DNA of 62,806 bases, counting the filler, from Basidiobolus ranarum (taxonomy: Eukaryota), in NCBI GenBank assembly GCA_040143965.1. It is 42 parts of 42 records of this genome, joined end to end, with 100 filler letters (N's around TTAATTAATTAA, not from the genome) between each part and the next. Parts side by side here need not be neighbours in the genome. Positions count along the whole stretch, not along the records: positions 53,964 to 55,355 come from JASJQH010012198.1; 41 more parts are not named here. The stretch is one strand, 5' to 3'. The notes under the pieces are model-generated. The model searched no databases, was not told the DNA's origin, and saw only the letters and a list, made by a program, of their open reading frames with translations. Positions 2,865 to 61,417 of the stretch are shown here, in pieces. Position 1 is the first letter of the stretch; every line of letters begins with the position of its first letter. The position numbers and the translations under genes are program-made.

Positions 2865-3008
2865 TTCCCGCTCAACTGATTATTTTGTATTTCTCTAAAA
2901 CCTAACTTNNNNNNNNNNNNNNNNNNNNNNNNNNNNNNNNNNNNNNNNNNNNTTAATTAATTAANNNNNNNNNNNNNNNNNNNNNNNNNNNNNNNNNNNN
3001 NNNNNNNN

Positions 3009-6016: not shown

Positions 6017-6388
6017 GTGTTGAGTAGCAGTAGAAAAGAAGGTGGCGGCAAACTTATTACGAAGAGCTCCTTGAGCCCAAAGTGCACCAGTGGCATCCCA
6101 GAACTGTTGGAATTGAGCAGGCATTGCACCATATCTAGTAGGAATACCGAAGAAGAACCCATCAGCTTCTGTCAGCATATCTGGTGTGATGACTGGGATA
6201 TCTGGCTTGGGTGGAGCGTGAAGCTTAGCAAGGATTTCATTTGATAGGGTCTCAGGAACCTGGTAGATAGTGACCTCAATATTGCCACTCTTCTCGATTC
6301 CCTTCTTGACTGACTTGGCCAACTCGTAGATATGACCATAGACAGTATAGAGGATGATAAAGATCTTAGTCTTGGATTGAGTGGTCAT
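6017..6388 (-). CDS. Flavodoxin-like NAD(P)H:quinone oxidoreductase (WrbA/Pst2/Ycp4 family), 5' part
   Basis: MTTQSKTKIFIILYTVYGHI, YQVPETL, ADGFFFGIPTRYGAMPAQ, FWDATGALW, FFSTATQH; uninterrupted frame, normal CpG; runs off the contig. Confidence 0.95.
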
Positions 6389-10525: not shown

Positions 10526-10997
10526 TTTTCTCCATCAAGCTTTTCAACACTTGAGTTAATAAATGTGGTAGTAGTGGTTTCTGTCATGCTGTAAAGGTTA
10601 GAACACGGGGCTCATAACCTATTGGGAAAATATGGGTTGTTTGGAGGAACTTTAGAAAAGTGGAGTTGTGAATAGCTTTGTGAGATAATTATTTATTGTC
10701 CAGAAACAAAGCATTTATGTGCTTTAGTGGAAATATAGAAAACTAACACTGGGGTTATGTTCAGAACCTCTGTGGGAGTAGGATGAGCTACTTTTGGGCC
10801 AATTTGGATGAGTTTGAAATTTGCATTATGGATTTGCTAATTCTCACATTATTCACATATATGTATAATATGTGCTCCAAATTGCAGTCAAGTGATATTT
10901 GACTAAGAAATCTTAACTAAATCATATGTGCTATATGAAATAGTTAGGTGTATAAAGATAGAGATAACAAATATGATAAAAACCATAAACTTCAACA
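10526..10997 (-). mobile_element. Copia family A 5' end: LTR (10620-10997), PBS (10608-10619), gag start
   Basis: LTR TGTTGAAGTTT...TTTTCCCAATA, then GGTTATGAGCCC, then MTETTTTTFINSSVEKLDGE. Confidence 0.92.
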
Positions 10998-11356
10998 GTT
11001 TTGGATTCAAATGAAAGCCAAATTTCCTCATCAATATATGGTTGATAGTTTGATGTATATCATTGTTGGAACATGGCCAGATTTTGCATATTTGGTGGGA
11101 GTTAATGCCAATATGTTCAAAATTATGGATCTGAACAAATTATAGCAGTTAAGCAGATTTTCCAATATTCAAAAGGTACTGTGGATCTGTGCTTAAAATC
11201 CACATATTCTGGATCAAACTTTGATCTCATGGGTTATTCAGATGCAAATTTGGGAGGAGATATTGAAGACAGCAGAACTACAACAGGATACTTATTTCTT
11301 TGCTGTAATAGAGATATTTCTTGGAATCCAGAGAAACAACCCACTATAGCACTTTG
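10998..11356 (+). mobile_element. Decayed copia RT / RNase H fragment
   Basis: YQYMVDSLMY-like, GYSDANLGGDIEDSRTTTGYLF and ISWNPEKQPTIAL motifs. Confidence 0.88.
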
Positions 11357-19535: not shown

Positions 19536-20936
19536 TCCCATACTCGACATTTGTTATCACCATACCCTTCGTCATTTGTCGATAGTATTTAGTGCTTTGT
19601 AGACTTTTCTTAAAGTGTTGCTTATACCAGTCGTTTGTTATCACCATACCCGTTGTCATTTATAAGCTGTCCTTAAGACTCGTAAACTCTTTTACAAGTG
19701 TTTCCCATACCGCTTGTTTGTTATCACCATACCCTTCGTTTGTTTCAGTAGGCTCTAGCATTTTGTAAACTCTGCATTAAGTGTTTCTTATACCCATCAT
19801 CATTTGTCAGTAGTCTTTACCACTGCGTGCATTCTCTTTTTAGTGTATCCCATACCGCTCGTTTATTGGCAGAGTAACAATTTTGCGGTACTATTGTTTC
19901 CTCTACCCGTTGTTTCTTGACACCATACCCTTCGACATTAATCAGTTTTCTTACGCACTTTGTAGACTCTGCTTGGAATATTTCCCATACCCGTTGTTTC
20001 TTGGCATCATACCCTTCGATATTTGCCAATAATCTCTCGCACTGCATAGGCTCTCCTTCGGGTGTTTCCTATATCTATCATTTTTTGACACAGTACCGCG
20101 TGTCATTTTACTCAACTTTAAGCGTTTCCCATACCAGTTGTTTCTAGACTCTGTTTGAAGTGTTTCCCATACCCGTTGTTCTTGGCACTCAGCAGTCGTT
20201 AGCACTTTATAAACTCTTCTTTAAGCTTTTCCCATACCGCTGGCTTTTGGCACCATACTTTTCTCTTTTATCAATAGGTTTTGCACTTTGTAGCATCTGT
20301 TTTTAATGTTTCCCAGCGCTTTGTGAACTCTACTTTAAGTGCTTTCCATACCCATCGCTTCTTGCACCATACTCTTTGCCACTTATTGGTGGTTTTTAGC
20401 AGTACATAAACTCTTTTTTAAGTGTTCTTCACACTCACTGTTTATTACACCCGTTATTCCTGGCACCATGCTCATTATCATCTGTCGGTAGTCTTACCAC
20501 TTTATTGGCTTTCATTTAAGTGTTTCCCATACCCATGATTTATGACACCATACTCTTCATCGTTTGTCATTGATCTTTAGCTCCCCGTATACTCTCCATT
20601 AAGTGTTTCCCATACCCTTCGTTCTTGGCACCATACTCTTCATTATTTTTTTAGTGGTTTTTAGCTCTCCGTATACTCTTCATTAAGTGTTTCCTATACC
20701 CGTCGTTTGTGGTACCATACTCTTCATCATTTGTTCGTAATCTTTAACTCTTCACAGCCTCTCCTTTTAGTGCTTCCCATACCCGTCGTTCTTGGCACCA
20801 TACTCTTCATCTTTTGTTAATGGTCTTTAGCTCTCCGTATACTCTCCTTTAAGTATTTCCCATACCGCTCATTCCCTAGCACCATACCCTCACCATAACT
20901 TTCATACCTGCCGTTGATAATCACCGTACCCTTTGT
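19536..20936. repeat. Diverged tandem array, unit about 83-85 bp with some truncated units
   Basis: TTAAGTGTTTCCCATACCCGTCGTTCTTGGCACCATACTCTTCA-like core recurs at about 84-bp spacing (e.g. near 20522, 20605, 20690, 20773, 20856); fills the whole contig. Confidence 0.93.
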
Positions 20937-26936: not shown

Positions 26937-27036
26937 NNNNNNNNNNNNNNNNNNNNNNNNNNNNNNNNNNNNNNNNNNNNTTAATTAATTAANNNNNNNN
27001 NNNNNNNNNNNNNNNNNNNNNNNNNNNNNNNNNNNN

Positions 27037-28435
27037 TAGATAACCGTTCAAATTCCGCAATCAAAGGCTCTAAGAAGCTATCTATAAGCACTGGTGATTT
27101 AGGTCCAGATATGATGGATAGTATCAAAATATTATGACTCTTATACCGTTCAGAACAAGGAAGATTAAAGGCAATTAAAATTATTGGCCAGCAAGCCTTT
27201 CCAATGGTATATTTGTTTAGTGAGAAACCATCCAGAGCCAATGCAAATGCATGATAATACATGTCCTCAAAGAAACCATGAATTTTCAGATTCCAGAAGT
27301 GATATCCATCAAGTATATTGGTAATATCATCAGCTTTATGGTGAGTACTTTGGTATTGGATGAATGATCTATATTTGGGTGATTTCATCAAAACTTTAAG
27401 ACAGGGAATCAACACTATGTAAGCCAAATATGAACAATATTAAAACTGATTCAGTGATTGCCAATTGTTTGCAAACAGTACATGACTTCAGGTTTTTCAG
27501 ATCACCAGTGAAAGCCAAACAACAATTTGAATATGAAGGCTGTTTAATTACTGAAGGATTATAAGTCATACAATTGAACAGTGTTTTCCACTGGTAACAG
27601 GTCTGTGGCAAGCCACAGTTGCAAATCAACTGTGGTAGAAGTGTAAAAAAACCAATAAACACCTGGTTGCTAAGATTGGATGGAACTCTGCACTCCTCAA
27701 TAATTAAAGCTGCTTCCTTTACAGTAAGTGTTATGAGTGGACTAATGTTCACTGATAACAAAGAGTCCATAACAAAACCATTATCTTCTTCTTCAACTAC
27801 TGATATACCAGCATTGGTACTGGAATAACCAAGGTCAACATCTAGTAGCAAGTCCTGAAAGTTGTCTGGACTTGCTGGTTTGACCAAAGTTGCATATTGA
27901 CCTACATCATTCTGGTTATACAACTGTGGTAACGCCACAGTATCTTGACTTTTGGCAGTGTTACCTAAACTTTGAGGCAAACTACAGTCAGTGGACTCAA
28001 TGGGCAAAACTAAACTTGATTTGGTGTACTTATTACTGTTGTTATACACCAGGCTTTGTGCAGCTGGTGGCTTTGTACAGTGACCATGCTTGTGATTATT
28101 TTTCTATGAAGCCTCCAGCTTTCATAGCACAAGAATTTGTGACAATAATAGCAAGGCTTCTTTAAACATTTGTGTTGCAGCATGAGAAGGATATAGCGAA
28201 AAAAAGAACACCTCCCATGTAAGGGTGGTATTTTAGGTATAGCCCATCAATATCATCAGCTGATTCTGAGACAGTGTCACAGATGAGTCATCAGGGGATT
28301 TACAAGATATTTCCGGTAATGGACGGCAATTTTGGTTTATTATAAGCTGTTTCTAAGCAATTTTATTACACCAAGTTTACCATCTGAAAATTTCAATGCC
28401 ATTCAAAAAGCGTTCAAAATCTAAGTCAAAATCGG
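27037..28435 (-). mobile_element. CACTA/EnSpm (CMC) transposase 5' half plus divergent ORF2 start (ATG 28396, plus strand)
   Basis: ALALDGFSL...CWPIILIAFNLPCSERYKSHNILILSIISGPKSP...DSFLEPLIAEF is typical of Transposase_21 (tnp2); upstream Cys motifs; frameshifted. Confidence 0.88.
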
Positions 28436-33031: not shown

Positions 33032-34429
33032 TAAATAATGTTGACTAACTAATATGTGATATATGAAATAGTTAGGTGTATAAAGATAGGGATAACATAT
33101 ATGATAAAGACAATAAACTTCAACACTCCCACTCAACTAAATATTCATATATCTTAATCCTAACTTAAATCTTAATTATTGAAATTTTGCCTTGGGTAAT
33201 GGTTTGGTAAGGATGTCAGCAAGCATGTCCTCAGTTGGACAGTACTGTAGTTGTATTTGCTTATTCTCAATAGCTTCCCTAACAAAGTGATGTTGAATGT
33301 CAATGTGCTTACTCCTAGCATGAAATTTCGGATTTTTAGCTAATGAAATACAACTTTGATTATCTTTAAAAATTATGGTGGGTGAACTTTGAGAAATGCC
33401 CAAGTCTTTAAAGAGTTTCCTTAGCCACATAGCCTCCTTTGTTGTGTGTGAAGCTGCCATGTACTCTGCTTCAGTTGTTGAAAGTGCTACGGTTGGTTGT
33501 TTCTTGCTATTCCAAGATATTGCTGCTTCACTATAGAGAAAGGTATATCCAGTTATTGATCTTCTGTCCTCAATATCACGTCCCCAATCTGCATCACTAA
33601 ACCCAATTAGATCCTTATTAGCATAAGAATATGTGTATCTTAATCCCAGATCAATTGTCCCCTTCAAGTATCTGAAAATCCGCTTAACTGCTGCATAATG
33701 TTCAGATCCTGGATTTTGCACATGTTGGCTGACTACTCCCACTGCAAAAGAGATATCTGGCCGGGTTCCAGTCATAGCATAGATCAAACTACCTACCATA
33801 GATTGATAAGGGAACTCAGGGCTTTCAAATGACATATTTTGAGCCATATTTGGCCGATTTTCATCATTTTTGATGGGATTTTTGACTAATTTCACACCTG
33901 GATCCATGGGAGTTGCTACTGGCTTGCAATTCTCCATCCTGTAACGTCTGAGAATGTCTGAGATGTATTTAGATTGATTCAGAGTGATAGATTTGCTCAA
34001 TATATCTGTATGGATCTGCAGACCTAAAAAATACGTAAGTTCGCCTAAATCGGTCATCTTGAATTGGACTGATAGATCTCTTTTGGTGTTCCTGAGAGCT
34101 TCATCATTATTGGTAGCTATAATCAGATCATCTACATATAAGGCAAGTATCACCTTACTGTCCTTATCTGTCTTAAAGTAGATCCCAAAATCTGCCATAC
34201 TCTTTTGGAAATCAACTGATTCCAAGTATGTGTCTATTTCAGTGTACCAGGCCCTGGGTAATTGTTTAAATCCTTAAAGTAATTTTTGAAGCTTTCACAC
34301 ATCCTCAGGGTGCTCAGGATCCACAAAACCATCTGGTTGATCCATGAATATATCCTCTTCCAAGTTCCCATTCAAAAAAGCAGTTTTAACATCCATTTGA
34401 TAGATTTTTAAGCTATGTTTTGCTGCTAC
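33032..34429 (-). mobile_element. Copia family A RT-RNase H (nearly intact), PPT and 3' LTR start (33032-33125)
   Basis: 349-aa ORF with LYVDDLII, FSDADW, STTEAEYMA, KHIDIQHHFVRE, MLADILTKPL; PPT TTGAGTGGGAG; premature stops at 33176 and near 34275. Confidence 0.96.
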
Positions 34430-34647
34430 NNNNNNNNNNNNNNNNNNNNNNNNNNNNNNNNNNNNNNNNNNNNTTAATTAATTAANNNNNNNNNNNNNNN
34501 NNNNNNNNNNNNNNNNNNNNNNNNNNNNNTAAGATGTAGCAAAACTTGTACGGGCTTATGTGACATCTAAGATGAATTTTTGAGGGCTTCCAACGATACT
34601 CTACATCTTTCTTTGACTTCCTCATGGTTCAAAGGGTCCTCTTGTCC

Positions 34648-35800
34648 AAAGTTCCTTCAAACAGCCCATATTTTCCCAATAGGTTATGAGCCCTGTGTAC
34701 TAAGCTTTAAAGCATGACAGAAACCACTACTTCCACTTTTATTAACTCAAGTGTTGAAAAGCTTGATGGGGAAAATTACAATTACTGGAAGTTCAAGATG
34801 CAAATCATGCTAGCAGACAGGCAGGTTTGGGATGTAGTCTCTGGAGATGAAAAGGAACCTTCTGACTCTTCTTTATTGGAAGCTTACAAGAAAAGAGACA
34901 AGAAGGCCTTCAATGTCATTTGTCAAAGTTTGAAGGATTTACAACTTGTGTATATTCAATATGCAAAGACTTCCCATCAAGCTTGGACTATATTGGAAGA
35001 ATGTTATGAAGCAAAGGGTCTTGCTAATAGACTCTTTCTCAAAAAAAATTCATCAATATAGAGATGGAAAAGTCCGAAAGCATGGTTACTCATATTGCAA
35101 ATGTGAGATCTTTGGCAAAACAATTGGAAAATATTGGTGCAACTTTACAGGAAGAAGATGTCATTATGACTCTTCTAAGCAGTCTACCAGAGCAGAATTC
35201 AAGCTTGGTCACATCTTTAGAAGAATGCTCAGACAAGTTATATTTGGAGTTTGTGGTGGCAAGACTAATGGATCAACACCTTATAAGTAAGAATTTGGAA
35301 AAAGAGTCTTAGGAAGTGGCTCTTTCTGGAACTGGAAAATGTAGCTTTGGCAGGTACAAAGGTTATAGAAGAAGGAAACCAGGTTTATGCTATGGGTGTG
35401 ACCAACCAGGACACCAGTTAAAAGATTGAAAATCAAGAAACTACAACAAAAATGAGAAGTCAGAACAAGCAAATCAGGCTTACAACCAAAGAGGAAGTTT
35501 TCTTCATTTTTGCCCTATCAGTGACCTCTGAACAAGACTGTAGGTCAAGGTATATTGCTTCTGGGGCCTCTCAACATTTCTCTAATCAAAAAAACTGGTC
35601 TAAGACACTTAAAACTGACATAAACAAGAAGGTTTTTATGGGAGATGACAGGCCACAGGAAGCACTGGGAGCGGGAGAAATCAAAGTGGATCTTTGGGGC
35701 ATCTCTGCAAACATGTACTTGAAACTGAAAAATGTGCTACATGTGCCTGAGATAGCAAAAAATTTGTTATTGAGAGTAAAACTACATCTGAGGAATATAG
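34648..35800 (+). mobile_element. Copia family A LTR end, PBS (34682-34693), gag and protease (decayed)
   Basis: ...TTTTCCCAATA GGTTATGAGCCC; gag ATG 34714; CCHC knuckle; protease YIASGASQHF and LKNVLHVPEIAKNLL. Confidence 0.93.
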
Positions 35801-36026: not shown

Positions 36027-36595
36027 ATTCTTTATTGGAAACTTACAAGAACAGAGACAAGAAGGCCTTTAATGTCATTTGTCAAAGTTTGAAGGCTTGA
36101 CAGCTTGTGATATTCAGTATGCAAAGACTTCCCATCAAGCTTGGACTATATTGGAAGAGTGCTATGAAGCAAAGAGTCTTGCTAATAGACTCTTTCTGAG
36201 ACAAGAATTCTTCAACATAAAGATTGAAAAGTCTGAACCCATGATTATTCATATTGCAAATGTGAGATCTTTGGCTGAAGAGCTGGGAAATATTGGTGCA
36301 ACTTTACAGGAAGAAGATGTAATTATGACTCTTCTAAGTAGTCTACCAGAACAGTACTCAAACTTGGTCACAGCTTTGGAAGCAAGATCTGACAAGTTGT
36401 CTTTGGAGTTTGTGGTAGAAAGGCTAATGGTTCAACATCTCAGAAGTATAAATTTGGAAAAAGTATCTGAGGAAGTGGCTCTTTTTGGAGCTGGCAAACA
36501 TAGCTTTGGCAAGTACAAAGGTTACAAAAGAAGGAAACCAGGCTTATGCTTTGGTTGTCACAAACCAGGACACCAGATAAAAGACTGAAATTGAA
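36027..36595 (+). mobile_element. Copia family A gag fragment, cut by a CMC end at 36596
   Basis: ORF 36079-36588 with gag motifs and CFGCHKPGHQIKD. Confidence 0.9.
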
Positions 36596-39020: not shown

Positions 39021-40416
39021 ATCCAATCTTAGCAACCAGCTGTTTATTGGTTTTCTTACACTTTTACCACAGTTGATTGGCAACTGTTGCTTTCCACAGA
39101 CCTGATACAAGTGGAAAACACTTGTCAGTCATATGACTTATAATCCTTCAGTAATTATACTGCCTTCATGTCCAAATGGTGTTTGGCTTTCCCCAGTGAT
39201 CTGAAAAACCTGAAGTCATGTACTGTTTGCACACAGTTGGCAATCACTGAATCAGTTAAATACTGCTTATATTTGGCTTGCATACTGTTGATTCCTGGTC
39301 TTAAAGCTTTGATGAAATCACCCAAATATTGATCATTGAACCAATAAAAAAGTACTCATCATAAAGCTGATGGTATTACCAATAAACTTGATGGATATCA
39401 TTACCAGAATCTGAAAAGTCAAGGTTTCTTTAAGAGCACATATGAACATGCATTTGCATTGGCTCTGGATGATTTCTCACTAAACAAATATACCATTGGA
39501 AAGGCTTGCTGGCCAAAAATTATAATCAAGTTAAATCTTCCTCCTTCTGAATGGTATAAGAGGCATAATATTTTGATACTATACATCATATCTGGACCTA
39601 AATCACCAATGCTTATAGATAGCTTCTTGGAACATCTGATTGCAGAATTTGAACGGTTATCTAATGGGGTTGAGATGGGTGAATACTTTATTAAAGCTAA
39701 TATCATTGTATACATTGGTGACACTCCTGCCATCATTAAACTTGGAGGTTTTTCTGGGCACAACACATTATCTTGCTGTAGGTTTTGTCAAATCAACGGA
39801 GTTTACTCTAAAAGGCATATGCATTACTACTATCCAAATACAACTCTAAACTCCATGATTTTACCATCAAGAGCCCAGTCAGATTTCAACATGATCACTG
39901 ATATCAATTCACTAAATAGTCAGTCTAACATCAAACTTAGTATTAGCCATAAGCCTAAGATTATATTGCCAAAGGGGATCAGCTGGAGCCACAGCTTCCC
40001 ATTAGGCACCATGCACTTACTATTTAACAACATTCCAATACTACTTACTCAGCTATATAGTGGGAAATTCAATATTAAAAGGCATTTGCGATAGGATCAA
40101 AGTTTGATTTGATTGTGAAAATGCTTGGAAACATCAAGATACCATCATATCTTACCAGGACTCCCATCAATATCCACTCATATAGGCGTTTATTCAAATG
40201 CAAAGACTGGAAGTATTGTATTTGTATATATTCCAGTGGAATTTTGAAAAGATTTCTGCCTGATAAGTATTGGCACCATTGGGAGTTGTTTATGGATATT
40301 GTTAATTTATTCTTATGGCATCAACTCACATTGGCAGATCTCAGGCAGATACAGCAACTGTGTGAAGATTTTGTAATTGGATATGAAAAACTTTATTACA
40401 GGTTTAAAAAAGATAG
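39021..40416 (+). mobile_element. CACTA/EnSpm (CMC) transposase core, decayed
   Basis: NLPPSEWYKRHNILILYIISGPKSP, GDTPAIIKLGGFSGHN..CCRFC, MHLLFNNI, FKCKDWK...LPDKYWHHW. Confidence 0.9.
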
Positions 40417-45003: not shown

Positions 45004-45070
45004 TCACCATACTCCATATTTTCCTCTTTGGGAATTACTGCTGGTACCACTAGTCACCAGACTCTCAACA
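45004..45070 (+). mobile_element. End of the tRNA-cassette LTR-like family (third copy)
   Basis: TCACCATACTCCATATTTTCCTCTTTGGGAATT...TCAACA matches 54986-55052. Confidence 0.85.
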
Positions 45071-48133: not shown

Positions 48134-49025
48134 GGGAAGAGTTCACTTCTACTTGCATATTGTTGATCTTAAATCCAGGATTCTTTCTTGGACAGGTTCT
48201 TGCTGCATGTCCAAGAGCTCCACAATAGAGGCATAGATTCTCTTGTTGGCATCAATATTTCTCCTCAGGGCTAAGCTTTCTGAAGCAGGTTCCATCAATT
48301 TGCATTGGGTCATCAGCTTGAGCAGTATTTTGTGTTTGAAGGAAGGGAGGTCTGAAAGTAGATGATGAAGGAGAGAAGAAAGGTGCCATATTTCTTTGTT
48401 GTTGTCTTTCAAACAACCAGTTGTTGCATTTAACTGCCTGATGGATAGCATCAGTCAAGGTCACTGTGTCAGCCATTGTGAGCAAAAGATCTTTAATATT
48501 TTCTTGGAGTCCATATTGGCATTGGTTGGTTAGGGCATATTTTCCCCAATTGAGATCACAAGCAAGAAGGCAGAATTCTGCAGCATAAGTTGATGCAGGG
48601 TTTGACCCTTGTATAAGTGCATGAAGCTTGGTGGCTGCAGTTTTTTCCTTGTCTGCATTTCCAAAGGTAGCTTCAAGCTCAGCAAGAAAGGCAAGGAAGT
48701 TTGAAAGAAGTGGAGATTGACTTTTGATCAAAGGAGCAACCCAAGATAGAGCTGTTCCTGATAATAGTGTTCCCACTAGGCCTACTTTTGTTTAGTCAGA
48801 GGGGTAGCAATGGGGATGTAATTGGATGATGAGTTTTACTTTGTTGATAAAACCATGATAGTTTTGGCAAGTGCCATCTAACTTATTTGGTAAGGGGATG
48901 TTGGGTTCAGGAGTTGGATTTGCAGGATAATTGGGTGGAGCTGGATTCTGGACTTGGGCAAGAGAAGCATGAAGTTCTTGATTTTGTTGCTGAAGCTGAG
49001 TAAGATCTCACAAAAGATCTTCCAT
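48134..49025 (-). mobile_element. Ty3/gypsy gag (retrotransposon gag domain plus CCHC)
   Basis: LSGTALSWVAP...TYAAEF...DPMQIDG and LCLYCGALGHAARTC; second copy with protease LLDSGA at 55456-56106. Confidence 0.9.
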
Positions 49026-49386: not shown

Positions 49387-49492
49387 NNNNNNNNNNNNNN
49401 NNNNNNNNNNNNNNNNNNNNNNNNNNNNNNTTAATTAATTAANNNNNNNNNNNNNNNNNNNNNNNNNNNNNNNNNNNNNNNNNNNNATACAA

Positions 49493-49565
49493 GGACTGGT
49501 AGGTCAGTGGTTAGAGCACCGTGCTAGAGTGAGGGTGGTCCCACGTTCAAATCCTGGCCAGACCA
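49493..49565 (+). pseudogene. tRNA-like sequence (73 nt) inside an LTR-like end (49487-49591)
   Basis: GGACTGG TA GGTC AGTGGTTA GAGC A CCGTG CTAGAGT GAGGG TGGTC CCACG TTCAAAT CCTGG CCAGACC A; cloverleaf spacing, A/B-box-like motifs, mismatched anticodon stem; repeat ends TTTCAACA at 49591. Confidence 0.75.
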
Positions 49566-50150
49566 AGATTGCGCCGTAAATAATTTCAACAGGGGCTAGG
49601 GTTGCATAGTACTGCCCTCAAAATTGTTACTTTGAGTTTGGTGTAAAAAGCATATTGCACTCTAAACTGATTCACTCACTGCAATGAATATAAGTGTCTA
49701 ATATTGCCAAGATTGGTGAAGTCACTTTCATAACATGAAGAACTGTCATTTAGGCTCTGCTTAAGCAGTGTGACAAAAATCAAGTTAATAAACTGAGTAA
49801 AGAAGAGATATTGTCAACCAAAAAAATGCATGCAAAAAAGTGAATCAGTTATAAGCGCCAGTGTATAAAAAATGAAATGGAAGCAGAGGTTCTGACACTA
49901 ATCCCCAGGTTTATTCTATCAGGCAGTGCTTTACGTCTTCGAAGTAGATACACTCCAAGGCTGACACCAATTGGGTACATAAGGCGATGTACTGTATTTG
50001 AGGTGAATCAAAAAGCCAATCAATAGGTATCGATAGAAAATATGACTTTTGTGTGCTTACGCTATGGTTCATATGTACATACACACTAAAGATTCCTTGA
50101 AATAGAGATTTATTTGTAAAATATACAAAGAGGTAATAATAAAAGTGATG

Positions 50151-50879
50151 TCAGAGATTATTTTGAGACATATAATTATCTAAGTATCCATAAAAGTCAC
50201 TGGTATGGGATTCACGAAGATTAGATTGTTGGTTAGCAATACGTTCCCATTCGAGCCATCGGTTCATAGGCACAGAATTATTATCGAATTCACCATCTTT
50301 ACCTCCATGGTCTTGGCCGCCCTCAGAATCCCCTTCAACCTGTCTAGTTTGCCCCCAAGTGAAATCGTCGAAATGCCAATACGCATAAGAAGGGAGTACC
50401 AGGTTCCAGATGGGTAGTGTCAGTAGATAAACTATCATATACCACAAATAAATAAACCTTCGTGTTGTGGAAAGAATCAACAATGCTGGTAGGCCTAGCA
50501 CCAAACTGAGCAATATTAAGGGAATAACAGGAGGGGATTTGACCACAAAGGAGAGTACAAGTAAATAGATAGTAAAGATAATGGCGGCTGGTAAAACCAC
50601 GGTTCCTATCAGCTCCATGAATACGAAGAACTGCATGGAGAAACAAAATATCCCACACAAATCCCTGACTAGCACCAGTTCTAACATATTATGAACTGTG
50701 GAGTTGATCCAACGTCTTCGTTGGGAGAGAAGGATTGCGAATGTATCGGGTACCACTGTTTTACATATTGCTTGAGGTACAAAAAGCATTTTTCTCTTGG
50801 GGAAAGTTTTCAGCATTAATGTAGTGAGGTATCGATCCTCTCCTAGTAATAAGAGATTCTTTTTGTGAAGCGTATCGAC
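50151..50879 (-). CDS. Chitin synthase, class IV (Chs3-like), 3' part
   Basis: [56 protein letters not shown]; transmembrane helices; normal CpG. Confidence 0.96.
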
Positions 50880-51953: not shown

Positions 51954-52766
51954 TGTCACAATAAGGAACTGGACAAGGTCTGAGAACAGCAACAAGAGGC
52001 TAGAAAGTAGGAGGGTACTTGGGTGTAGATTATGTTGAAATTAGGTAAATAGCAACTCATTATTTAGTAGTTAGTTTATCCATATTCTGATTATTTAGCA
52101 CTCAATTCTGTTATTCAAAAACGTGTGTTAATTGCTCTAATTGATAGAAATATCAATTAGATCACTTTTACCAATTTTCACTATTTTCTCAAAACTTCTC
52201 CAAATCACCTCAAATTTTCACCCATGCTTAACAGGCATGTTTGTTATGATCTAAGCACGTCCAATAGTCCTATTTCATAGTAAACTATAAATAGGACATA
52301 TTCAATTCAATAAAACTTAAGTGTCTAATTCACAAATCCAAATCTTGTCCAAAACACTTCCAAATCCCCTANNNNNNNNNNNNNNNNNNNNNNNNNNNNN
52401 NNNNNNNNNNNNNNNTTAATTAATTAANNNNNNNNNNNNNNNNNNNNNNNNNNNNNNNNNNNNNNNNNNNNATCATCCCTCTTTGTATTGGTCCTTGAAG
52501 CCCCCAACATCCTAACTCTTGAACTTGCCACAGTATAATCCATATTAAGTATATTATGTTTCACCTTGCAATATCTATATAAGCCCCATATATTCCTTGA
52601 TCAGACTGAGGTCTGATCAATGCCAGTTATCAATAAAGATTCTTGCCAAAGTATCTTCCTTGTCCAGTCTTGTCTTGTCTTGTCTTGTGGTGTACACCCT
52701 AGTACTCTCCTGCATTCTGACCACCTGTTGTTGTTCCCAGTCCTTGTCCAGTTCCTTATTGTGACA

Positions 52767-53863
52767 TTAGTATTGTATTTGGATAATAGGTATGTATATG
52801 CCTGATAGAGTAAATGCTATTGATTTGACCAAATATACAGCATGATGGAGCATTGTGCCCACAAAAACCTCCAAGTTTACTGATGGCAGGAGTGTTACTA
52901 ATACATACAATGATATTGGCTTTAAAAAAGTATTCACCTATCCAAACCACATTAGATAACCATTCTTCTTTTGCAATCAAAGGCTCTAAGAAGCTATCCA
53001 TAAGCACAGGTGATTTAGGTCCAGATATTATGGATAGTATCAACATATAATGACTCTTATACCATTCTGAAGGAGGAAGATTTAACTTAATCAAAATTAT
53101 TGCCAGCAAGCCTTTCCAGCAGTATAGTTGTTTAGTGAGAAACCATCCAGAGCCAATGCAAAAGCATGATTGTATGTTTCTCAAATAAACCTTGATTTTC
53201 AGATACTGATAGTGATAGCCATCAAGTATATTGGTAATACCATCAACTTTATGGTGAGTACTTTGGTTTTTCTGCCTTCATCATTCTGGTCATGTAACAG
53301 TGGTTGCTACACAGTATCATGACTTTTGGCAGTGTTGCCAAAACTTTGAGGCAAAGCATGGCCAGTGGACTCAGTGGGCCAAACTAAAGTCAATTTTGAG
53401 CACTTATTACTGTTAATATTCACCAGTCTTTGTGCTGCTGGTGGCATTGTACAATGACCATGCTTGGGATTATTTCTTGTATGAAGCTCTTGGCTTTGAA
53501 TGCACAAGAATATGTAATTATAATAGCCTGGCTTCTTTATAAATTTATGTTGTGGAATGAAATAAACATTGTAGAAAACGAGCACCTCTAGCTTACTGAT
53601 GGTAATTGAGGTATATCCCATCAATATCATTAGCTGATTCTGAGACAGTGTCACGGATTAGTCAGCAGGGGATTTACAAGATATTTCTGGTAATGGATGG
53701 CAGTTTGGGTTTAATATAAGCTGTTTCTAAGCAATTTCATTACACCAATTCTAATAACAGAAAATTTTAATACAGTTTAAAAAGCATTCTAGATATGAAT
53801 CAAAACTGGCTTTCAAGCAAAAGCCTGCTAGTACAAATGGAAAAAACCAGCAAGAACAGAGGA
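52767..53863 (-). mobile_element. CMC transposase 5' region with internal deletion and divergent ORF2 start; an LTR-like repeat ending TTGTGACA lies to the left
   Basis: NLPPSEWYKSHYMLILSIISGPKSP; collinear with 27037-28435. Confidence 0.82.
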
Positions 53864-54116: not shown

Positions 54117-54650
54117 TGTTAAAGTATTTTGGAGGCTGTTGCAAGTGGTTTGAAGAATTAGAGAAATCAGTGGTGTTTGCTTATTGATTTATTGATTAGA
54201 TAGTTGACACTTATACTCTTGTCAAGTTGTAAACAAACTAACATGTTGAATGTGTTAAAGAAGGTCCCAGGAACATGTGTGCAAAGTTTGGGGCTTCTAG
54301 CACAAGTTTGAACAGCTATATATCCAAGAACTTCTGAGTTGGTAAAAATAATCCAAGTAAGTTCTGATTGAGAATAATGGGTAATATCTAGTGAAATATA
54401 AGATAGCTAAGTACTAAGCTATATATGACCATATAGGTGTTTAGGTAATGCTAATTTCAACACTCTCCCTCAACCAAATAGTCATATAAACTAATCCAAA
54501 GGAAGGTCTAAGCTTCTCAAACTTCTGTCAAGCTAATGGTTTGGTCAACATACCAGCAATGATCTCTTCTGTAGAATAGTAAGTCAAATCAATAAACTTA
54601 TTCTCTATAGTATCTTAAGTGAAGACATGCCTAATATATATGTTTGGCAC
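54117..54650 (-). mobile_element. Copia family B RNase H end, PPT and 3' LTR (54117-54462)
   Basis: EEIIAGMLTKPL-like RNase H end, PPT TTGAGGGAGAG, LTR TGTTGAAATTAGC...TTTAACA. Confidence 0.88.
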
Positions 54651-54770: not shown

Positions 54771-55052
54771 TGCTGAAATCATTGAGGGAGAAATATTGGT
54801 CAGGCCAGGATTTGAACCTGAGACCTCCTTCACTCTAGCAAGATGCTTTAACCATTGAGCTACCAGTCCTTGTATGCTATGCCTATATTGCTAGGGAACC
54901 TTAACCTAGTCTGTCAATGTATGGTACTTTGGCATCTCAGCTATACAAGGAACTGATTGGCCTTAGACTTTGTGTTCAGATGCAGTCACCATACTCCATA
55001 TTTTCCTCTTTGGGAATTATCACTTGTACCACAAGTCACCAGACTTTCAACA
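54771..55052. mobile_element. 282-bp LTR-like element containing a tRNA-like cassette
   Basis: Termini TGCTGAAAT...TTTCAACA; each terminus is confirmed by a separate copy (49591, 45070); no target-site duplication visible. Confidence 0.78.
54797..54869 (-). pseudogene. tRNA-like sequence (73 nt), second copy
   Basis: GGACTGG TA GCTC AATGGTTA AAGC A TCTTG CTAGAGT GAAGG AGGTC TCAGG TTCAAAT CCTGG CCTGACC A; A box TAGCTCAATGG, B box GGTTCAAATCC. Confidence 0.78.
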
Positions 55053-55455
55053 GTTTCACCCTACTATATCTATATAAGCTCCCTATTTTCCTTGATCAGA
55101 CCTTATTGGGAAAATATGGGCTATTTGGAGGAACTTAAGAAAAGTAGAGTTGTGAATAGCTTTGTGAGATAATTATATATTTTCCGGAAATAAAGCATTT
55201 ATACATTTTGGTGGAAATACAGAAAACTAACACTGGGGTTTTGTTCAGAACATCTGTGGGAGTAAAATGAGCTATCTTTGGGGCAATTTGGACTAGTTTG
55301 AAATTTCCAATATGGAATTGCTAATTCTCACATTATTCACATATATATATATAATNNNNNNNNNNNNNNNNNNNNNNNNNNNNNNNNNNNNNNNNNNNNT
55401 TAATTAATTAANNNNNNNNNNNNNNNNNNNNNNNNNNNNNNNNNNNNNNNNNNNN

Positions 55456-58552: not shown

Positions 58553-59066
58553 TTTTCTTCTCCTGCAACAGTATCCCAAAGTCCTTTTTCTTGCAGCAGC
58601 ATTTTCATTTTAATTTTACAAACTTGATAATTGGTTCCATCCATTTTTCAGAAGAGGGAAATGTTCCATAGATTTGAGAAGTATACATTACAGAGAGTCC
58701 AAGCTTGGGGCTCATAGCCTGTTAAAGTGCTTGGGAGCCTGTTGGAAGTGGTTTGGAGAATTAGAGAAATTGGTAGTTTCACTTACTGATTTATTGAGTA
58801 GAAAGTTGACATATATAGTTTTGTCAAGATGTAAGCAAAGCAATGTGTAGAATATGTTAAGGAAGGTCACAGGAATATGTATGCAAAGTTTGGGGCTTCT
58901 AGCACAAGTTTGAAAAATCTATATATCTGAGAACTTCTAAGTTGGTAAAAATATTCCAAGCAAATTTCAATTAAGAATAATGGATAATATCTTAGTGAAC
59001 TATAAGATAACTAAGTATTAAGCTATATATGACTATATAGGTGTTTAGGCAAAGCTAATTTCAACA
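58553..59066 (-). mobile_element. Copia family B 5' end: LTR (58720-59066), PBS (58708-58719), gag start
   Basis: ...CTTTAACA GGCTATGAGCCC; gag homologous to 16913-17107; a family C LTR end lies at 58438-58552. Confidence 0.9.
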
Positions 59067-61317: not shown

Positions 61318-61417
61318 NNNNNNNNNNNNNNNNNNNNNNNNNNNNNNNNNNNNNNNNNNNNTTAATTAATTAANNNNNNNNNNNNNNNNNNNNNNNNNNN
61401 NNNNNNNNNNNNNNNNN

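Follow-up and report, generated by a model that had tools for sequence, protein, structure and literature searches.

The stretch of DNA analysed here (the window) comprises 62,806 bases from Basidiobolus ranarum, an early-diverging fungus outside Dikarya, and carries three copies, one full-length and two partial, of a 282-bp element that has the ends of a long terminal repeat (LTR) and holds a tRNA-derived module in its interior. The window consists of 42 contigs (assembly GCA_040143965.1), sorted by decreasing length from 1404 down to 1389 bp and joined by 41 identical 100-nt linkers, each made of an N-run, TTAATTAATTAA and a second N-run (1405-1504, 2909-3008, ... 61318-61417). Since the window is a set of joined contigs, the three copies lie on unrelated contigs; neighbouring pieces are unrelated, spacing and adjacency across different pieces are artificial, and a feature that begins directly after a linker has been cut by a contig end and does not reach a biological end there. 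The GC content is ~30–38%, and the majority of the contigs are repeat mosaics according to BLASTN within the window. The copies of the element and their parts, with positions in the element counted in the tRNA sense, are:

54771..55052 (-): copy 1, the sole full-length copy, LTR-like, 282 bp (BLASTN and flanked local alignment)
54870..55052 (-): upstream part of copy 1, U3-like, sense positions 1-183 (183 nt; alignments)
54797..54869 (-): tRNA-derived module of copy 1, 73 nt (Rfam RF00005, ARAGORN)
54771..54796 (-): tail of copy 1, 26 nt from the module to the LTR 3' end, T-rich without a T-run of >=4
49487..49591 (+): copy 2, the 3' 105 nt of the element, sense positions 178-282 (BLASTN, alignment)
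45004..45070 (-): copy 3, the 5' 67 nt of the element, sense positions 1-67 (BLASTN, alignment)

Read in the tRNA sense, copy 1 runs from 5' TGTTGAAAG to TTTCAGCA 3', and the element termini are TG...CA, complementary at 8/9 positions as a terminal inverted repeat. Local alignments supplied with 30-nt flanks on each side end exactly at the element ends listed above, the 5' end being TGTTGAAAG in copy 1 and TGTTGAGAG in copy 3, and the 3' end ...TTTCAGCA in copy 1 and ...TTTCAACA in copy 2. Copy 2, which matches copy 1 in inverted orientation (BLASTN, 49591-49487) at 88/105 positions (83.8% over 105 nt), is made up of 6 nt upstream of the module, the module itself (49493-49565) and then the 26-nt tail; its 5' side is cut at the contig start, the copy beginning with the first base after a linker. 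Copy 3, also cut by a contig start, is identical to copy 1 at 61/67 positions (91.0% over 67 nt, BLASTN) and supports the first 67 nt of the upstream region, sense positions 68-177 being present in copy 1 alone. A preliminary description, made from the sequence without database searches, had proposed a 282-bp element with copia-style inverted ends and a 73-nt tRNA-shaped segment about 26 bp from one end, a second copy with this cassette at an equal distance from the same end, and a third copy that confirmed the other end. All of this is borne out by the termini, by the 26-nt distance between module end and element end, which is equal in the two copies that contain a module, and by the alignment of copy 3 stopping at the element end; the BLASTN search with 54771-55052 that it recommended, run within the window, returned the query itself and the two copies already proposed. 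No further fragments of the element were found in the window by this search or by a 20-mer scan with 3 substitutions allowed, and two exact-pattern scans of metagenome contigs, one for the tRNA junction and one for the conserved 5' block, gave 0 loci each.

The surroundings of the copies indicate where the unit was inserted. Copy 3 sits within another repeat (W) that has five other BLASTN matches in the window, and three aligned paralogs of W run across the insertion point; the left flank of copy 1 is a repeat (Y), both of whose paralogs continue past the insertion junction. The flank of copy 2 is sequence unique in the window, and the copy itself lies ~560 bp downstream of where a chitin synthase fragment has its stop. 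These alignments show directly that the unit is an LTR-type insertion with an internal tRNA-derived module and sharp boundaries, lying inside other repeats, and the module is internal rather than a 5' head because homology extends 6/6 nt upstream of it in copy 2. That contig ends cut into two of these copies agrees with a multi-copy repeat but is no measure of copy number.

Two other origins of such a unit bear directly on its ends and its integrity. Considering that no second copy spans sense positions 68-177, and that the contig of copy 1 is a mosaic of nested repeat fragments, copy 1 could be a composite in which a truncated LTR 5' part (sense position 1 to at least 67) came to lie beside a SINE (short interspersed nuclear element) or tRNA pseudogene (beginning at or before 178 and reaching 282). 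We consider this distinctly improbable, given that the outer ends pair as an 8/9 inverted repeat of a type borne by LTRs of this genome, that neither an A-rich nor a simple-repeat tail is present at the 3' end, with only 26 nt following the module, that homology reaches 6 nt upstream of the module, and that the combined layout and length are those of the published Helenus LTRs discussed below. The small size and the terminal inverted repeats would also suit the relic of a DNA transposon, a miniature inverted-repeat transposable element (MITE) that had acquired a tRNA fragment, and CACTA-like Transposase_21 open reading frames (ORFs) do occur in the window; the inverted repeat, however, covers just 8/9 nt and has the TGTTG...CAACA form that Copia LTRs of the window also have, copy 1 lacks a target-site duplication (TSD) of any length, and the element has no hairpin-like overall symmetry. 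A MITE origin is in our judgement very improbable.

The tRNA-like nature of the module is recognized by two programs. ARAGORN makes two 'tRNA-Ser (aga)' calls in the window, at 54797-54869 (-) and 49493-49565 (+), and the two modules are the sole Rfam matches in the window to reach the gathering threshold: the Infernal RF00005 search suggested in the preliminary description gave 44.0 bits for copy 1 (E 4e-6) and 30.2 bits for copy 2, both above the gathering score of 29. Among the 11 Rfam matches at E<=10 in the window there is no other tRNA-like module, and 5S rRNA has no Rfam match in the window even at E<=10, so that a Cassandra-type 5S module was not encountered. On the Rfam cloverleaf, 33/42 stem cells (78.6%) form standard pairs in the two copies, as against 17–50% in a control in which the 3' partner was shifted by 1-3 columns. 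The features that the preliminary description had picked out, namely D and T stems that pair in the two-copy consensus, a mismatched anticodon stem and the absence of the long variable arm expected for tRNA-Ser, are all recovered: pairing amounts to 90% in the T stem and 70% in the anticodon stem, the D stem has one mismatch per copy but at different pairs (11-24 unpaired in one, 13-22 in the other), and the 'Ser-AGA' anticodon of the ARAGORN call comes with a short variable arm. The A- and B-box motifs that it had noted in the two-copy consensus are intact in copy 1, whose box A cores read TAGCT and TGG and whose box B core reads GGTTC; in copy 2 two cores have changed. The two modules differ at 10/73 positions and the tails at 7/26, and the module is followed by TTTC or by no T-run, in keeping with decay of the copies. 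The pairing pattern of the module suggests that a better-paired ancestor has decayed, rather than that pairing has been maintained.

An LTR of this design has a published counterpart. Helenus elements are small, non-autonomous miniature retrotransposons with terminal repeats (TRIMs) whose LTRs hold tRNA-derived sequence (Kojima, 2024, Biology 13:119, PMC10886601), and together with the 5S-bearing Cassandra and Ajax they make up 'TRIMp3'; they have been described as 113 families in Pucciniales, a few in Agaricomycetes, and from six animal phyla and Selaginella (PMC10886601). Fungal Helenus have LTRs of 106–284 bp, a span that includes the 282 bp of our element, with internal portions of 51–354 bp, 5-bp TSDs and primer-binding sites (PBSs) mostly complementary to the initiator-tRNA anticodon loop (PMC10886601). 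In the published consensuses compared, the LTR order is tgttg..., an upstream region, a sense tRNA-like module and a 14–40-nt T-rich tail ending ...aca (PMC10886601), which is also the order found here, and the published box cores (A = TRGCY + YGG, B = GGTTC; PMC10886601) are those of copy 1. The spurious 'Ser-AGA' call is a further likeness: in rust genomes most 'Thr-AGT', 'Ser-AGA' and similar tRNA calls are Helenus copies, which account for 28/44, 90/95 and 154/160 of the 'Ser-AGA' calls (PMC10886601). Copia elements with a PBS for the initiator-tRNA anticodon loop are present in this genome too, and some Helenus families are known from solo LTRs alone (PMC10886601).

The element is thus probably the LTR of a Helenus-type non-autonomous LTR retrotransposon (TRIMp3), of which the three copies are solo or truncated representatives; we file it as a probable TRIM, the contigs being no longer than ~1.4 kb. 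The retroelement with a built-in tRNA module that the preliminary description had envisaged as a tRNA analogue of Cassandra accordingly finds its match in published Helenus, in layout, length, termini and box cores. Its doubt whether such an element had been described in fungi is settled, the class having been reported from Pucciniales and Agaricomycetes, and its suggestion that the cassette might be a primer source falls, a primer role of the Helenus module having been rejected for want of complementarity between the tRNA-like part and the PBS (PMC10886601).

As to the place of the element among Helenus families, a 16-mer of its module, caggttcaaatcctgg, occurs in two published LTRs, Helenus-4 and Helenus-16 of Cronartium, and the module words tagctcaatggtta and ggttagagcacc occur 12 and 6 times, respectively, in the Helenus consensus file (all as exact words). 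By eye, the copy 2 module agrees with that of Helenus-1_AmAr in ~58/74 columns, and the LTR of that family runs tgttgaaat...ttttcaaca; the nearest published families by eye are Helenus-1_AmAr (Amylostereum) and Helenus-4 and Helenus-16_CroRib (Cronartium), with the 'Ser-AGA'-called Helenus-9_PSt and Helenus-6_CroRib also among the nearest. Such likeness of the modules is expected for a shared tRNA type, and does not show common descent of the elements. Words outside the tRNA-conserved parts do not recur in the published Helenus consensuses, and by this exact-word comparison the element is not a member of a published Helenus family.

Several observations weigh against the assignment to Helenus. 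The 5' part is joined to the cassette in copy 1 alone; a PBS of any type listed for fungal Helenus follows none of the three copies and a G-rich polypurine tract (PPT) precedes none; no paired LTRs occur in the window, where contigs are ~1.4 kb and contig starts cut two of the three copies; and the 5-nt sense flanks of copy 1, GAAAC upstream and ACATG downstream, form no TSD. Within the module, copy 2 has TAGGT for TRGCY and CGTTC for GGTTC, two mutated cores, with TGG kept. There are 0 compensatory changes, each broken pair being broken in one copy or in both; the minimum-energy fold of neither copy is a cloverleaf (z = +0.84 and -1.06 vs shuffles); and a T-run of >=4 downstream of the module is absent within 297 nt in copy 1 and 335 nt in copy 2. 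A conservation comparison of the sort proposed in the preliminary description, made between module and tail, gives identities of 63/73 and 19/26, so that the module is not significantly better conserved (Fisher p = 0.14). Finally, 7/11 words derived from the element have no exact match in the consensus file, and one more is a generic LTR-end word.

The flanks of copy 1 deserve separate comment. Repeat Y stops at copy 1 and does not resume on the other side (BLASTN, paralog alignment), and these flanks are therefore chimeric, which may be due to ectopic recombination, to nested insertions with deletions or to misassembly. Because of the chimeric flanks the TSD test is uninformative, not negative. 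The check for paired copies with PBS, PPT and 5-bp TSDs that had been advised yields none in this window of ~1.4-kb contigs. On the non-Y side, copy 1 borders first on stretch Z (49 bp, 55053-55101), beyond which lies Copia LTR R; considered as an internal portion with PBS and PPT, Z matches no PBS type listed by Kojima (PMC10886601). Stretch Z has one paralog (52558-52606, 88% shared, with different neighbours on both sides) and carries the TATA-like CTATATAAGC. A MAFFT hint that the element 5' end resembles the start of copia gag was discarded, the similarity lying within gag coding sequence (VEKLDG) and probably being due to chance.

Since the internal region of the element has never been seen, the 282-bp unit could instead be an LTR with an incidental tRNA-derived stretch, belonging to an autonomous, coding retrotransposon. 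Its length would be normal for a Copia LTR (LTR B of this window is ~347 bp), and 'not a few' Repbase LTRs have tRNA-like stretches, only some of them belonging to TRIMs (PMC10886601). Nevertheless, no Copia or Gypsy internal fragment in the window abuts the element, the position of the module and the tail match TRIM consensuses, and Pol III-type modules, i.e. those with an internal promoter for RNA polymerase III (Pol III), are thought to be ill-suited to long transcripts (PMC10886601, Discussion); we hold an autonomous, coding parent to be unlikely.

The decay described above also decides what the modules are at present. The three copies are old, dead relics, 84–91% identical, with stems broken by one-sided changes and without a T-run terminator, and the two modules are not tRNA genes, because their stems have decayed, they do not fold as cloverleaves and no T-run follows. 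Rfam and ARAGORN both call a tRNA, as would be the case for a genuine tRNA gene beside which a solo LTR had been targeted, as by Ty1/Ty3 in yeast; set against this are the 10/73 differences between the copies, the 33/42 paired stem cells, minimum-energy folds that are not cloverleaves, a Ser anticodon with a short variable arm, the missing terminator, and a matched inverted repeat at which the shared flank ends on either side. We give this explanation hardly any credence. To judge from their sequences, these copies are also unlikely to be active promoters.

How an intact Helenus-type element of this kind might have worked can be outlined by analogy with the published class and with Cassandra. 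The A and B boxes carried by the 5' LTR module of an active copy would recruit TFIIIC, TFIIIB and Pol III, and the transcript would start near the first base of the module and run through the PBS, a short internal region and the PPT into the 3' LTR. Pol III transcription of Helenus itself was deduced from box conservation and has been demonstrated for no family (PMC10886601), and mobilization by Copia is likewise Kojima's inference (PMC10886601); in that paper, Copia-9_PGr has its PBS and the start or end of its internal region in common with LTR-1_PTrit (PMC10886601). Autonomous Copia proteins would then package the element RNA, reverse-transcribe it and integrate the product, and Copia integrase may recognize TGTTGAA... 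5' termini like those of Copia LTRs in the window, which holds both Copia families with such TGTTGAA(A/G)... 5' termini and a PBS for the initiator-tRNA anticodon loop. We further suggest, as our own proposal and not that of PMC10886601, that the TTTT run which most of the published tails compared have just after the module may act as a leaky Pol III terminator that defines the end of the R region.

The remaining features of the window are chiefly other mobile elements and a few host gene fragments:

54117..54462 (-): 'B', a Copia-type LTR sharing its contig with copy 1 (alignment, termini)
58720-59066 (-): sister copy of LTR B, then PBS GGCTATGAGCCC at 58708-58719
10608..10998 (-): Copia 5' LTR 'R' (TGTTGAAGTTTAT...CCCAATA), then PBS GGTTATGAGCCC, then the gag start
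33179-34273: RVT_2 match (Copia), profile match
34711-35061 and 36073-36588: copia-type gag matches, profile matches
48255-48791: Retrotrans_gag element, profile match
26981-27439 (-), 39348-40094 (+) and 52756-53277 (-): ORF family, Pfam Transposase_21 (tnp2, CACTA-like), E 1.7e-13 for 39348-40094
50154-50879 (-): chitin synthase fragment on the contig of copy 2 (Chitin_synth_2; best match 87%, B. meristosporus)

LTR B has the 5' end TGTTGAAATTAGC in 3/4 copies printed and TGCTGAAATTAGC in the fourth, and its 3' end is ...TTTAACA, immediately ahead of the PBS GGCTATGAGCCC; both ends resemble the termini of the element. The 5' termini of the element are of the same type as those of LTRs B and R, and the LTR B type is a candidate for the autonomous partner type of the element. 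The PBS of LTR R, GGTTATGAGCCC, which also occurs on the contig at 34682 where copia-type gag follows (34640-35061 (+)), is the PBS type of most fungal Helenus families; it lies outside the element and is given as context. A motif reported with the R and B LTR families occurs 3 times at <=1 mismatch, with 0.10 occurrences expected by chance. The Transposase_21 ORFs look like relics of DNA transposons in the same genome.

Host gene fragments, present on a few contigs, come from the chitin synthase, from an FMN reductase of flavodoxin-like type and from the IQ-motif tail of a myosin. Two different Basidiobolus ranarum proteins, encoded on contigs of ~1.3–1.6 kb, match the reductase fragment (6017-6388 (-)) at 96% identity, and B. 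meristosporus matches it at 69%; that the former value falls short of 100% points to paralogs or haplotypes that have diverged, or else to another strain or species. The named matches of the reductase and chitin synthase fragments place the contigs in Basidiobolus, and a plant or a rust as host, readings that the 34% GC and the repeat load had prompted, was rejected on their account. In the other direction, the first protein-atlas match of the myosin fragment was a cluster labelled 'commonest Basidiomycota (phylum known for 6)', which we weigh less than the named 96% matches; a near-length search with the myosin fragment returned no match. One contig carries tandem arrays at 19895-20073 and 20511-20873, with a period of 83–84 bp, 2.1 and 4.2 copies and 74–78% matches.

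With regard to the wider meaning of these relics, we regard it as an evenly balanced question whether Basidiobolus carries its own family of Helenus-type miniature LTR retrotransposons with a Pol III-promoter module. If it does, fungal Helenus would no longer be confined to Basidiomycota, and three options would arise: fungal Helenus may be much older than the proposed rust-lineage age of ~130 million years, TRIMs dependent on Copia may have captured, repeatedly and independently, a like tRNA module in the same LTR position, or such elements may have moved horizontally between fungal phyla. Confirmation of paired LTRs would establish the TRIMp3 design in a second, very distant fungal lineage, which would bear on how frequently Pol II promoters have been swapped for Pol III promoters in LTR elements. 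There is also a practical side, in that the relics pass ARAGORN and Rfam as tRNA genes and Basidiobolus tRNA gene sets need screening; in rusts, tRNA counts are inflated by hundreds through Helenus copies (PMC10886601, Table 2). As pure speculation, dispersed A/B-box modules are potential TFIIIC binding sites.

Kojima's screen started from Repbase seeds and was extended only to relatives of the seed genomes (PMC10886601), and the main text of that paper makes 0 mentions of Basidiobolus, Zoopagomycota, Mucoromycota or Ascomycota (PMC10886601). Our own literature search, to which Repbase itself did not belong, found no Helenus outside Kojima's host list and nothing on Basidiobolus LTR elements.

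Among known systems, tRNA-derived SINEs (SINE2) resemble the element in having a dispersed, multi-copy A/B-box tRNA module that is miscalled as a tRNA gene. They differ in layout, since the module here begins at sense position 184/282 and is internal, with 183 nt preceding it and 6/6 upstream nt common to copy 2, and the element has LTR-type ends and a 26-nt tail ending ...CA in place of a LINE-type (long interspersed nuclear element) or A-rich tail, and its expected mobilizer is Copia and not a LINE. Solo LTRs adjoining tRNA genes are known from Ty1/Ty3 targeting, and these share with the element the juxtaposition of LTR and tRNA sequence; here, however, a degenerate tRNA-like sequence lies within the repeat unit and is copied together with it. 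Cassandra, a miniature LTR retrotransposon, is built on the same plan as the element, its two LTRs each harbouring an internal promoter module of the Pol III type, but the module is 5S rRNA and the host a plant, whereas ours is tRNA-derived and fungal; Cassandra is the only TRIM of this sort experimentally shown to be Pol III-transcribed (PMC10886601). Ajax, a nemertean TRIM, shares the TRIMp3 design and differs in its partial 5S-derived promoter fragment and animal host. Helenus differs from what we see in that the element appears, in a window of ~1.4-kb contigs, without internal portion, PBS, PPT or 5-bp TSD, and its tail is without the TTTT run common to most of the published consensus tails compared (PMC10886601); the hosts differ as well, published fungal Helenus being from Pucciniales and Agaricomycetes and the element from Basidiobolus. 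The element is, then, a decayed relic and no new kind of system: its kind has already been published, fungi included, and what is new is the host, Basidiobolus.

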